Of a stretch of DNA of 64,000 bases, positions 40,997 through 45,316 are shown piece by piece. The notes beneath the pieces are model-generated. The model made no database searches. It saw only the letters and a list, made by a program, of their open reading frames with translations, and had not been told where the DNA came from. The position numbers and the translations under genes were made by a program. The DNA lies in assembly GCA_000004695.1 (NCBI GenBank), contig CM000150.2, positions 2,720,001 to 2,784,000 on the forward strand. Reading direction: 5' to 3'. Source of the DNA: Dictyostelium discoideum. Its lineage: Eukaryota. Numbering within the stretch: the first letter of the stretch is position 1; each line of letters starts with the position of its first letter.

Positions 40997-42299
40997 TTTG
41001 AATAATTATTCTGTATCTTTTAATCCAATTATTTCATAAAATATCATCATTACTCAAAAATTCATTTTTAGGTTTCTTTTTTAAAGTTAAAATTTTTAAA
41101 GGCTCTCCTGTATACCCTAAATTTAAATGATTAGAAATTAATTTTTATTATTTTTTTTTTTTCCTGTTTAAAAAAAGTGATTTATTTAATTTAGCTTTAT
41201 TTCCAATAAACCTTTCAACCTTCTTTTAAAGGTATTTTATCTAATTTCTTCCTATAATTTTTAAAATCTGATGGTGATTTAAAAGGTCCTGCAGCCCACA
41301 TTGTTTTCCCATTTATTAAATTAGCACCCATTTCAAATTTTACACCAGTGTCACCAAACTCCCCCCTTTCTTCTCATAAATATAATTCCACCTTTTTTTT
41401 TTTTTTTTTTTTATAAAAAAATACTTTTTTATAATTTTAATAAAAACAAAGAGAATAAATCAATTCAAAAAAAATAATGGTAAAAAATCAAAACTAAAAA
41501 AAGACAAAAGAAGCACCTGTAGAAAAACAAAGAGCAAAATAATGTAATGATATTGTATTTTTGATTTTTTTTTTTTTTTTTTGGAAACCATTTTTATTTT
41601 TGGTGGTATAAAATTAATTTTTTTTTTCCCACTTTTTTCATTTTAGCCCGCCTGATTTAATATGTGAAATGATTTTTTTGAAAAAAATAAAAAAATGTGA
41701 ACAATACTATGAAATAAAAGAATATTTTTCAAAAAAAAAAGCTTTAGAATTTTAAAAAGTTCAAAATGTTGTTGTCATATGATGTTTACTTATTTTCGGT
41801 TGTTTTTTCTATTTTTAATTTCGATTTCTTTTTTTTTTTTTTAATTTATAATATTTGCAAAAAAAAAAAAAAAAATGATTAAATTTGAAAAATACCACAC
41901 TATTGTATTAGTTAGTGTAATTCTTTTTTTTTTTTATTTTTAATTTTTTAAAAATTTGTTGGGTTTCAGATATTTTCATACCTCAAGATCTCGAAAAAAA
42001 TGCGATCAAAAAAAAAAAAAATAAAAATAATAATAAAAATTTGATTAAATTTTAAAATCCACAACTACCAATCAAATTTTTTTTTTTTTTTTTTTTTAGA
42101 TACGAAAGATTTTAGTGATTTTTTTATATATATTTAACTGCTTTATAGACAATTCCCTAACGAGATACTTTGAATATTATTTTATTTTAATTTAATTGTT
42201 TTTTTTTTTTTTTTTCTTTTTCTATAAATTGATCACTTTTTTTTTTTATTCAAATCATTAAATTATAATTCTCAGAACAAATATTTATTAAAAAAAAAA

Positions 42300-43013
42300 A
42301 TGGTAGTTCAATTAACACTTGTAGGAGTTGCTGCTGCAGTAGGTATTGCTGCTGGTGTAGTTACTATTGGAACAACATTAGTAGACAAGATCAAAGGTTT
42401 CCTTCCAAATAATGAGGCTGATAGGAAAGAGGTTAAATACTTATCATTCAAAGATGATCAACCAACAAATGGTTTTAGATTGTAAGACATTAATATATTT
42501 TTTTTTAATAATTTTTTAAATTTTATTAATAAATTTTTTTTTTTTTTAATTTTGAATTAGGATTCTTGTAAATGAAAGTACTGGATGGAATAAAGCTGTT
42601 CGTATCTACACAAATCCAGGTGGTTCTGATTACCAAGAGGTAAAAGCTGGTGATTCAACTGGTACAGTTTGTAAAGGTAATATGCATCTTAAGTATGATA
42701 CTAAAAGAGTTAATTTCCCAACAGATAAAGATTACATTACTTTGAATCTTATGAAACCAGGAGCATTTGGTATTTATTCAACAGTAGACGAAATTAGAAT
42801 TTACAAAGACAAGTTTGCTGATTATGATGGTACTACCTTTGTTGTATATTGGCAAAATGATACATCTGGAGTAAGTTAATTTTTATTTTTATAATTTTGA
42901 CAATTTAAAAAAAAAAAAAAAAAAATAATATAAATTTTTAATTTTAACCAACCATTTTTATTTAATAGTATTTCAATAATATAAACAATTGGGTGAGTCC
43001 AGCTGATATGTAA
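42300..43013 (+). CDS. Copy 1 of an unrecognised tandem gene family encoding a 178-aa protein with an N-terminal hydrophobic glycine-zipper-like segment. Three exons: 42300..42481, 42561..42870 and 42969..43013.
   Basis: MVVQLTLVGVAAAVGIAAGVVTIGTTLVDKIKGF...NGFR+tt | g ILVNESTGWNKAVRIYTNPGG...VYWQNDTSG | YFNNINNWVSPADM*. Donors are gtaaga at 42482 and gtaagt at 42871. Acceptors are aattag (ending 42560) and taatag (ending 42968). The three exons total 537 nt. Confidence 0.7.
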
Positions 43014-43540
43014 AAATACACATCACTCACATACCAATCATTTTATAAAAATTTTATAAGTTTGGTAAATTAATTCAATTAAAAGAAATTTATATTCGAA
43101 ATATTTTAATTTTTTATTTTTTTTTATAATATTGAGTAAATATTTTTAAAATATCAAATAAAACTTTCAAAACAAATATTATTTTTTAATTTTTAAAATT
43201 ATTTTTAAAAAAAGCTTTTTTTTTTTTTTTTTTTAAATGTTTTAAATAAAAAGAAATCAAAAAAAATAAAAACCATTGCCAAAAAAATCGATCAAATAAA
43301 AAAAAATCTTTTTTTTTATTTTTTTTTATTTCCGACACACAAAAAAAAAAAAAAAAGATGTTTTTTATTTTAATTAAAATCACAAAACTGATCAAATTTT
43401 ATTTTATATAATTTTTTTTTTATTTTTTTTTTTGGAAATGAAAGATTTTAGTAATTTTTTTATACGTTTAACTATTTTAAAGATAATCCCTCAAATTAAA
43501 GTTTTTGTAAGTTGCCAATGAGTTACTTTAATATTATTAT

Positions 43541-43573
<33 letters not shown>

Positions 43574-43666
43574 CATTTTATTTTATATATTCTTTTTTTT
43601 TTTTTTATTTTTTTTTTTTTAAAATGATTAAATTATAATTTTCAAAGCAAATATTTATTATAGAAT

Positions 43667-43775
43667 GGTAGTTCAGTTGTAGGAGTTGCAGCAGTCATAG
43701 GTATTGCTGCTGGTGTAATTAGTATTGGAACAACATTAGTAGACAAGATCAAAGGCTTCCTTCCAAATAATAATA
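43667..43775 (+). pseudogene. Decayed exon-1 fragment of the same family, the middle copy of the tandem array.
   Basis: atggtagttcag ttgtaggagttgcagcagtcataggtattgctgctggtgtaattagtattggaacaacattagtagacaagatcaaaggcttccttccaaataat matches exon 1 of the flanking copies but carries a deletion that creates a TAG. There is no downstream exon 2 or 3. The upstream promoter-like block is also conserved. Confidence 0.6.
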
Positions 43776-44254
43776 TGATTTTCTTTTTTTTTTATTTTTT
43801 TTTTTTTTTTGAAAAATCATAAATATTTTTTGAAAAAAATTTTTAACAAATTAATAAATAATTATAATTTAATCAAAATGGCTTTTTTTTTTTTTTTTCT
43901 TGTTTTTTTATTTTTTTTATTTATATTCTTTCATTGAAATCCAAAAAAAAAAAAATAAAAAACATTTGCTTTTCATTGAGATAATGATCAAAATAAAAAA
44001 AAAATTGTTTTTTTTTATAACACACAAAAAAAAAAAAAAAGAATTAAAAATAAAAAAAAATCAATTTAAATAAACCAACAGGATGTTTTTTTTTTTTTAT
44101 TTTTAAAATCTACAACCACCAATCAAATTTTTTTTTTTGGAAATAAAAGATTTTGGTGATTTTTTTATATAATTAACTGCTATAAAGTTAATCCTCAGAA
44201 ATTAAAAGTTTTTGTAATTTGCCAATGAGATAATTTTAATTTTAATTAAATTAT

Positions 44255-44288
<34 letters not shown>

Positions 44289-44360
44289 CTATAAATTGAT
44301 CTTTTTTTTTTTTTTCAAATCATTAAATTATAATTTTCAAAACAAATATTTATTAAAAAA

Positions 44361-45065
44361 ATGGTAGTTCAATTAACAGTTGTAGGAGTTGCCGCAGCCA
44401 TAGGTATTGCTGCTGGTGTAGTTAGTATTGGAACAACATTAGTAGACAAGATCAAAGGTTTCCTTCCAAATAATGAGGCTGATAGAAAAGAAGTTAAATA
44501 TTTATCATTCAAAGATGGTCAACCAACAAATGGTTTTAGACTGTAAGTTATCATTATTATTTTTTAATGGTTTTACAATTTTATTAATTATTTTTTATTT
44601 TTTATTTTAATTAGAATTCTTGTAAATGAAAAAACTGGTTGGAATAAAGCTGTTCGTATCTACACAAATCCAGGTGGTGCTGATTACCAAGAGGTAAAAG
44701 CTGGTGATTCAACTGGTACAGTTTGTAAAGGTAATATGCATCTTAAGTATGATACTAAAAGAGTTAATTTCCCAACAAATAAGGAATACATTACTTTGAA
44801 TCTTATGAAACCAGGTGCATTGGGTATTTACTCAACAGTAGACGAAATTAGAATTTACAAAGACAAATTTGCTGACTATAATGGTACTACCTTTGTTGTA
44901 TATTGGCAAAATGATACATCTGGAGTAAGTTAATTTTTAATTTTATCATATTTAATAATTATAAAAAAAAAAAAAAAAAAAACAATTGAATTTTTAATTT
45001 TAACAAATCTTTTTTAATAGTATTTCAATGATATCAAGAATTGGGTAAGTCCAGCTGATATGTAA
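44361..45065 (+). CDS. Copy 2 of the tandem family, 178 aa. Three exons: 44361..44542, 44615..44924 and 45021..45065.
   Basis: The intron positions and phases match copy 1. The protein differs at about 12 positions (for example TLVGV to TVVGV, DDQP to DGQP, NESTGW to NEKTGW, DKDY to NKEY, NNINNW to NDIKNW). Track ORFs 44361..44546 and 44736..44933 anchor the frames. Confidence 0.7.
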
Positions 45066-45316
45066 ATAATATCACAAACATTCCAATCATTTTATAAATT
45101 TTTTAAAAGATTGGTAAATCAATTCAATTAAATAAAATTTAAATTTTTTATTTTAATCTTTTTTTTTTATTTTTTATTAAAACATTAAGTAAATATTTCA
45201 AAAAATATCTTTTGAGAAATTAATTTATTTTAACATTTTTAAAAATAATTTTTATATAAACCCAAAATGTTTATTTTGATTATTTTAAAATAAATTAATA
45301 AACTAAATTCAAAAGG

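Follow-up and report, generated by a model that had tools for sequence, protein, structure and literature searches.

Two live genes and one dead copy of a small gene family lie head to tail within the 64,000-nucleotide stretch of Dictyostelium discoideum AX4 chromosome 1 analysed here (the window; G+C ~22%). The live genes, A (DDB_G0269436) and B (DDB_G0270518), flank the dead middle copy, M. It is very probable that the locus is a three-unit array that originated in the D. discoideum lineage and, jointly with this, that its proteins belong to an orphan family of dictyostelids built on a beta-sandwich. When a mechanism for the protein is added to these statements on locus and family, the resulting account is the best explanation that we can offer as a whole, with a chance of being right that we would put at about even.

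The tandem array and its gene models

The array was delimited by self-BLAST with strict scoring; lax scoring was swamped by A/T-rich noise. Positions 42050-43237 align with 44101-45289 (83.5% over 1232 columns), 43216-43771 with 43904-44474 (74.5%) and 42075-42413 with 43410-43771 (74.3%). An A/T-rich block, X, with the core ...AAATGTTTTAA...AAAAAACATTG...CGATCAAATAAAAAAAAA...ACACACAAAAAAA, is present after A, after M and after B. As this block closes every unit, the array consists of three head-to-tail units (Table 1). A tblastn search over the window returned no family copy beyond A, M and B. The first-pass annotation, a model's reading of the letters alone, had described a tandem array with two live copies and a decayed one; both self-BLAST and the gene models bear this out, and the self-comparison it proposed has supplied the boundaries of the three units.

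Each live gene has a 537-nt coding sequence (CDS) and encodes a protein of 178 aa. All four introns of A and B have a GTAAG donor and a TAG acceptor, and their phases are the same in both genes, namely phase 2 after 182 nt and phase 0 after 492 nt. The proteins are identical at 166 of 178 residues (93.3%) and the CDSs at 508 of 537 nt, which confirms the earlier description of two three-exon genes with common intron positions and phases and about 93% protein identity. The translations match the deposited AX4 proteins DDB_G0269436/Q55E16 (A) and DDB_G0270518/Q55E15 (B) exactly, each deposited under the name 'hypothetical protein'. Further, orthologues of 178 aa have been annotated independently in D. 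citrinum, D. firmibasis, D. dimigraforme and several D. discoideum strains, the D. cf. discoideum proteins mapped back onto their own locus give an identical three-exon layout, and the tail encoded by exon 3, YFxxxxNxxxP, is kept throughout the family. The exact deposited match, the independent annotation and layout of the orthologues and the conserved tail together support the splice joins. Both genes were already part of the reference annotation, and a duplication plus a dead copy is routine.

The middle unit retains the upstream blocks, a degenerate TATA region, the block of the 5' untranslated region (UTR) and the first 105 nt of exon 1. Its reading frame, M V V Q L stop, is produced by a 7-bp deletion; beyond the stop, the remnant corresponds to residues 6-38 and is 91% identical to B and 82% to A. 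Homology to exon 1 stops at 43771, where M jumps to the terminal block. Because it carries X, M is an internally deleted third unit and not a stray promoter fragment. The earlier description of M as a promoter block and an exon-1 remnant with a stop-creating deletion holds, except for its statement that nothing else was kept, since the terminal A/T-rich block is kept as well.

History of the duplication

D. citrinum has one family gene at the locus, and its neighbours, the large gene upstream and the genes downstream, are those of AX4. One family gene is also found between the same flanking genes in D. firmibasis, with an extra FNIP-domain gene in the interval, and a single close family protein was seen in D. 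dimigraforme as a protein-level match. D. cf. discoideum (assembly GCA_054859205.1, locus L003) and the D. discoideum strain of assembly GCA_054859355.1 (locus L005) have two copies each. In a neighbour-joining tree, the copies from D. discoideum strains and from D. cf. discoideum fall into one A-type and one B-type cluster; the species with a single copy stand outside both clusters, and the A branch is the longer one. The D. firmibasis protein is 94% identical to B and 90% to A, which makes A the faster-evolving copy.

Between A and B the synonymous divergence (dS) is 0.153, the nonsynonymous divergence (dN) 0.032 and their ratio (omega) 0.21, a value from which both live copies are seen to be maintained by purifying selection. 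Identity in introns and flanks is 76-86%, about as dS predicts. As orthologues are closer than paralogues, the copies have evolved without concerted evolution. Gene conversion, which the first-pass annotation had kept as an option, was rejected: in the tree the orthologues cluster according to their copy type, and the non-coding divergence fits dS. The duplication is lineage-specific, as had been proposed, but it is not very recent, given a dS of 0.15 and the occurrence of both types in the strains and in D. cf. discoideum alike.

In L005 the M remnant is interrupted by a TGA stop in place of the 7-bp deletion of AX4. Its exon 1 extends 37 nt further than that of the AX4 M (to about aa 50), and the sequence that then follows, ATATGATTTTC, is the same in both. 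With different lesions and a common end sequence, M was dead before the strains diverged. A single ancestral gene gave rise to the three-unit tandem array in the D. discoideum lineage, most likely, we infer, by unequal crossing-over. A and B have stayed functional, and M died early, losing the part from mid-exon 1 through to the terminal block. The array is like other ordinary tandem duplications in having head-to-tail units bounded by A/T-rich repeats, one faster copy, diverged promoters, one dead copy and content between the copies that differs among strains. Nothing about it is unusual, and there is no sign of concerted evolution.

Promoters and expression

The 24-nt promoter block AAAGATTTTAGTGATTTTTTTATA occurs three times in the window at one mismatch or fewer, with 0 occurrences expected by chance. 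Together with self-BLAST, these occurrences sustain the earlier statement that the promoter block was duplicated along with the gene. The core CTATAAA of the putative TATA box is kept in the D. citrinum and D. firmibasis orthologues, and the block just 5' of the ATG is also conserved in these two species.

B, M and the genes of D. citrinum and D. firmibasis all carry the element TTTTTGTAAnnTGnCAAT, which the A-type copies in AX4 and in D. cf. discoideum have lost by deletion. The A-type loss is ~27 bp, comparing window positions 42150-42175 with 44183-44229 and 43480-43522. Judged from the sequence, TTTTTGTAAnnTGnCAAT is a candidate cis-regulatory site separating the two live paralogues. As the A-type copies are without this conserved footprint, different regulation of A and B is predicted; the two promoters have diverged and may divide regulation between them.

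Gene B is transcribed, with a baseMean of 38.9 by RNA sequencing (RNA-seq) (PMC12405889). In a knockout of dnmA (DNMT2), DDB_G0270518 is up-regulated with a log2 fold change of 2.7 (6.5-fold, adjusted P 1.5e-5); it is one of 28 up-regulated genes, a list that also contains seven hspG (Hsp20) genes and several retrotransposons, and in which gene A is not found (PMC12405889).

Table 1. Features of the A-M-B array, in window positions
Feature	Position	Strand	Remark
Repeat unit A	42050..43360	+	Self-BLAST; promoter, gene A, 3' flank, terminal A/T-rich X block (43216-43360)
Repeat unit M	43360..44040	+	Dead, internally deleted; promoter blocks, exon-1 remnant, unaligned 43772-43903, X block 43904-44040
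Repeat unit B	44040..45525	+	Promoter, gene B, 3' flank, terminal X block (about 45340-45525)
Gene A (DDB_G0269436), exon 1	42300-42481	+	Encodes hydrophobic Gly/Ala-zipper N-terminus and start of beta domain
Gene A, exon 2	42561-42870	+	Encodes predicted beta-sandwich core
Gene A, exon 3	42969-43013	+	Stop codon included
Gene B (DDB_G0270518), exon 1	44361-44542	+	
Gene B, exon 2	44615-44924	+	
Gene B, exon 3	45021-45065	+	Stop codon included
M exon-1 remnant	43665..43771	+	ATG at 43665, 7-bp deletion, TAG at 43680-43682
Promoter block AAAGATTTTAGTGATTTTTTTATA, 24 nt	42105-42128 (A), 43441-43464 (M), 44146-44169 (B)	+	1 mismatch in M
Upstream block of A, ACAACTACCAATCAAA	42061-42076	+	Conserved-block set of A spans 42061..42142
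Upstream block of A, TTTAACTGCT	42133-42142	+	
Upstream block of B, ACAACCACCAATCAAA	44112-44127	+	Conserved-block set of B spans 44112..44229
Putative TATA box CTATAAAT, gene A	42222..42229	+	
Putative TATA box CTATAAAT, gene B	44289..44296	+	
Conserved block (5' UTR) just 5' of gene A ATG	42252..42289	+	Three window copies, at most 5 mismatches
Footprint TTTTTGTAAGTTGCCAATGAG in M	43502..43522	+	Common to B, D. citrinum and D. firmibasis; deleted in A-type copies
Footprint TTTTTGTAATTTGCCAATGAG in B	44209-44229	+	

An orphan family of dictyostelids

The two proteins belong to a larger family. A phmmer search matched DDB_G0290885 at E 2.7e-73, and a profile search found 10 representatives at E<1e-10; a word-index protein search with a diverse alignment returned only 10 proteins, with no gain over these results. 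When 1.84 billion representative proteins were searched exhaustively with HMMER, 20 matched at E<1e-3, and 17 of these are small proteins of 146-230 aa. Named dictyostelids account for 14 of these 17, including Dictyostelium species such as D. purpureum, as well as Tieghemostelium lacteum and Polysphondylium violaceum; the other three are EukProt entries. The other AX4 members are DDB_G0290885/7, DDB_G0267726/8, DDB_G0268332 and DDB_G0279525. Across the species, family members are related to the window proteins at E values from 1e-107 down to about 1e-4, are 146-230 aa long and often stand in tandem. A 22-sequence alignment of the family shows the motifs FRLILVNEKxxWNKAVRIY, E(V/I)K(A/C)GDSTGK, KPGxxGIW and DGKTxVxYWxNDxSxYF, in which the conserved GDSTG and NDxS loops are candidate binding sites.

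A bacterial origin or horizontal transfer was also considered and rejected. The three long non-dictyostelid matches of the exhaustive search are one protein to which its source gives the name PQQ-binding-like beta-propeller repeat protein and two metagenome proteins. Two of the three were compared by hhalign and gave probabilities of 2.6% and 0.6%, and all three were therefore treated as spurious. Further, the introns after residues 61 and 164 of the window proteins correspond to those after residues 62 and 165 of DDB_G0290885, and these two positions in common with DDB_G0290885/7 argue against a recent foreign origin. DDB_G0290887 and DDB_G0290885 are likewise a head-to-tail tandem pair (L002:3654-6960, AX4 assembly GCA_054883475.1) and carry extra introns, with four or more exons compared with three in the window genes.

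Searches of PDB sequences with phmmer and with hmmsearch using the family profile gave chance matches only (8w20, E 2.5; GluA2, E 0.04). In the literature searched by gene and protein identifiers, no paper discusses any member; the identifiers led to a single RNA-seq table, and supplements held nothing more. As far as sequence comparison can tell, the family is an orphan one that is confined to dictyostelids and lacks a detectable relative whose function has been described. A clear database match to a characterised family, which the first-pass annotation had named as the result that would overturn its reading, was found neither in Pfam and PDB nor by the exhaustive HMMER search. Its description of the family as unrecognised is right in that respect; the genes were, however, already annotated as hypothetical proteins, and numerous relatives occur throughout Dictyostelia, among them further tandem sets in AX4.

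The C-terminal domain

An AlphaFold run with the 22-sequence family alignment produced five models that all agree (mean predicted local distance difference test, pLDDT, 74.6-77.0), with residues 41-178 at about 85-95. Strands are modelled at 45-51, 58-66, 72-77, 86-90, 104-112, 119-127, 133-142 and 152-158, with one short helix at 143-149. The core of the domain is thus confidently predicted to be a beta-sandwich of about 135 aa and eight strands, so that the beta-rich C-terminal domain described earlier is upheld by the very check that had been suggested for it.

The domain could be assigned to no described fold family. That it is a divergent discoidin (F5/8 type C) lectin domain has only a faint chance of being correct. 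Pfam PF00754 does match residues 46-126 at E 0.005-0.016, but the scores of 15.8 and 17.3 bits lie below the gathering threshold of 28.2, and PF00754 matches, with E up to 1, are found in only 3 of the 22 family members. Sub-threshold, confined to these three members and with no fold similarity to solved discoidin domains, the assignment was rejected. For a C2 domain, the combination of a sequence-profile match with a strong structural match to C2 sandwiches was not found, although C2-domain proteins with an N-terminal anchor, of the synaptotagmin type, are among the known systems that come closest. One structural match was to the DUF2436 domain of Porphyromonas gingivalis PrtH/gingipain-type virulence proteins (PDB 9isp), a bacterial extracellular domain; it has 5% identity and no sequence signal, and its score is well below the level of homologous domains.

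The N-terminus and topology

The window proteins begin with a hydrophobic segment that starts at residue 2, with no charge before it. Residues 2-28 are without charge in both A and B and have a Kyte-Doolittle 19-residue mean of 2.3; the spacing A11xxxG15xxxG19 lies within them, and DKIKGFLP follows. This repeated (G/A/S)xxxGxxx(G/A/S) spacing in a hydrophobic segment of span length is that of a transmembrane glycine zipper, and the segment of 27 uncharged residues vindicates the first-pass annotation in its account of a hydrophobic N-terminus with GxxxG/AxxxG spacing. The annotation had offered a signal-anchor or a glycine zipper as what the segment might be: the zipper spacing is present and a membrane anchor is plausible, but the Pfam DUF883_C glycine-zipper model matches only at E 5.6-7.5, so the likeness is one of motif and not of family membership. 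Within the family, the uninterrupted hydrophobic Gly/Ala N-terminus is found only in the window pair and in the DDB_G0290885/7 subfamily. Of 27 family members, 17 have an N-terminus that is charged and not hydrophobic, and in another two the hydrophobic stretch is broken by an acidic residue. The DDB_G0267726 subfamily keeps the motif I(K/R)(G/S)F(L/F)P, and its N-terminal region contains E, N, P and K.

These relatives bear on where the domain resides. Cys residues vary in number and position within the family, with no pair conserved, and even orthologues differ in their N-glycosylation sequons. A domain that is leaderless in most relatives and needs neither disulfides nor glycans is most simply cytosolic. 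An N-out/C-in signal anchor is favoured where, as here, a long hydrophobic span comes right after a very short N-terminus that bears no charge. On these grounds, the 27-residue Gly/Ala N-terminus with its small-xxx-small spacing would be an uncleaved membrane anchor that may self-associate; the anchor would hold the beta-sandwich at the cytosolic face of the membrane, where it would act as a non-enzymatic ligand-binding module, possibly in a stress response. We put forward this cytosol-facing, membrane-tethered binding module, with its perhaps self-associating anchor, as a tentative inference that is possible but has well below an even chance.

Several points weigh against such a tether. The topology argument is indirect, and the two sides of the hydrophobic segment hardly differ in net charge. 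On the Hessa scale, the best 19-residue window has an energy of about 0, which is borderline for membrane insertion, and AlphaFold gives the segment no helix, with a pLDDT below 35 (residues 1-37 are below 50). The leaderless N-termini of the relatives could be gene-model errors, and the link to stress depends on one RNA-seq table.

Some of the same features can be read differently. The protein would be secreted or displayed at the surface as an extracellular lectin- or adhesin-like module if the N-terminus were a cleavable signal peptide or a type II anchor, a reading that we consider unlikely. It would account for a hydrophobic stretch at the extreme N-terminus with AxA-like sites (AAA13, IAA18), for a sequon (N160-D-T) in both A and B, and for the many weak fold neighbours that are carbohydrate-binding or extracellular sandwiches (CBM20, CBM21, CBM26, CBM34 and the PepT ectodomain). 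However, inspection for signal-peptide features showed no charge in the n-region and AxA-like sites that lie inside the hydrophobic run; at 27 residues this run far exceeds a signal-peptide core, and the mature N-terminus would still be hydrophobic after any plausible cleavage. The 17 relatives without a leader and the lack of a conserved cysteine pair also speak against secretion, and the sequons are absent in the D. citrinum orthologue and in the AX4 paralogue DDB_G0290885.

A soluble, cytosolic protein, whose Gly/Ala N-terminus is buried, oligomerising or only conditionally membrane-inserting, appears more unlikely still. The borderline insertion energy and the missing AlphaFold helix would suit it, as would the DDB_G0267726 subfamily, whose homologous N-terminal region has E, N, P and K in it and is unable to span a membrane, although the motif after it is conserved. 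Against this, 27 consecutive uncharged and mostly aliphatic residues would be hard to keep in solution, and the hydrophobic N-terminus is conserved across two subfamilies and five species.

The first-pass annotation had thought of a secreted or membrane factor, possibly pore-forming. Secretion and pore formation gained no positive support from the leaderless relatives, the unconserved Cys and sequons or the fold comparisons. A pore-forming or membrane-damaging factor, in which an oligomeric pore would be lined by the glycine zipper and directed to a membrane by the beta-sandwich, is very improbable: no sequence or fold match to the module of the beta pore-forming toxins (aerolysin, CDC/MACPF, actinoporin) was found, no other pore-former fold rose above background, most family members are without the zipper, and the protein has no secretion signal that would bring it to a target. 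We also regard as improbable a reading in which the family would define a new dictyostelid beta-sandwich domain, the two subfamilies with a zipper would form a self-associating, membrane-inserting factor (for example, a stress-induced channel or a factor in membrane remodelling), and diversifying ecological pressure on the locus would make its copy number and the genes next to it differ among wild strains.

Variation of the interval and neighbouring sequence

The A-B interval is different in each of the three two-copy genomes. In the strain of assembly GCA_054859355.1, two genes for 154-aa Redoxin/AhpC-TSA (peroxiredoxin-like) proteins lie between copy A and the M remnant (L005:7725-10252). 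AX4 is without this 3.6-kb peroxiredoxin-like segment, and the corresponding junction is at window positions 43216-43265. About 50 bp of the terminal A/T-rich block at this junction match both flanks of the L005 segment, which suggests deletion or insertion through recombination between the repeated blocks. In D. cf. discoideum, a DDE transposase fragment (PF01609/PF13359, 161 aa) and a 242-aa open reading frame (ORF) are found between the copies (L003:4584-5903), and no M remnant was detected between its A-type and B-type copies.

Upstream of unit A, coding-like sequence is present on the minus strand at 40361-41425 (ORF 40643-40996, extending to about 41390). It matches a portion of a 311-aa minus-strand gene of D. 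cf. discoideum (L003 636-2076) at 80% identity and is absent at the same position in strain L005, D. citrinum and D. firmibasis. Its single-frame translation in AX4 contains many stops, so that it is either spliced or decaying. Further upstream lie two large genes, one at ~34.0-36.4 kb, which has a weak Sel1 hit, and one at ~36.8-40.3 kb. In the comparisons of orthologous loci they cross-match at 74-77% identity (34027-35093 with about 37700-38800), and they are apparently another tandem paralogue pair. A tRNA scan of the window found no tRNA genes.

Implications

The A-M-B locus is structurally variable among D. discoideum strains and can serve as a marker of unequal crossing-over in an extremely A/T-rich genome. 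The loss of the footprint in A predicts that A and B are regulated differently, which is easily tested. The C-terminal domain, a predicted beta-sandwich that is restricted to one clade, lacks a Pfam entry and has no close relative among solved structures, is a candidate new domain family. In two of its subfamilies the variable N-terminus would have become a glycine-zipper-like anchor, and the family may thus offer a small, tractable case of a soluble module gaining a membrane tether.

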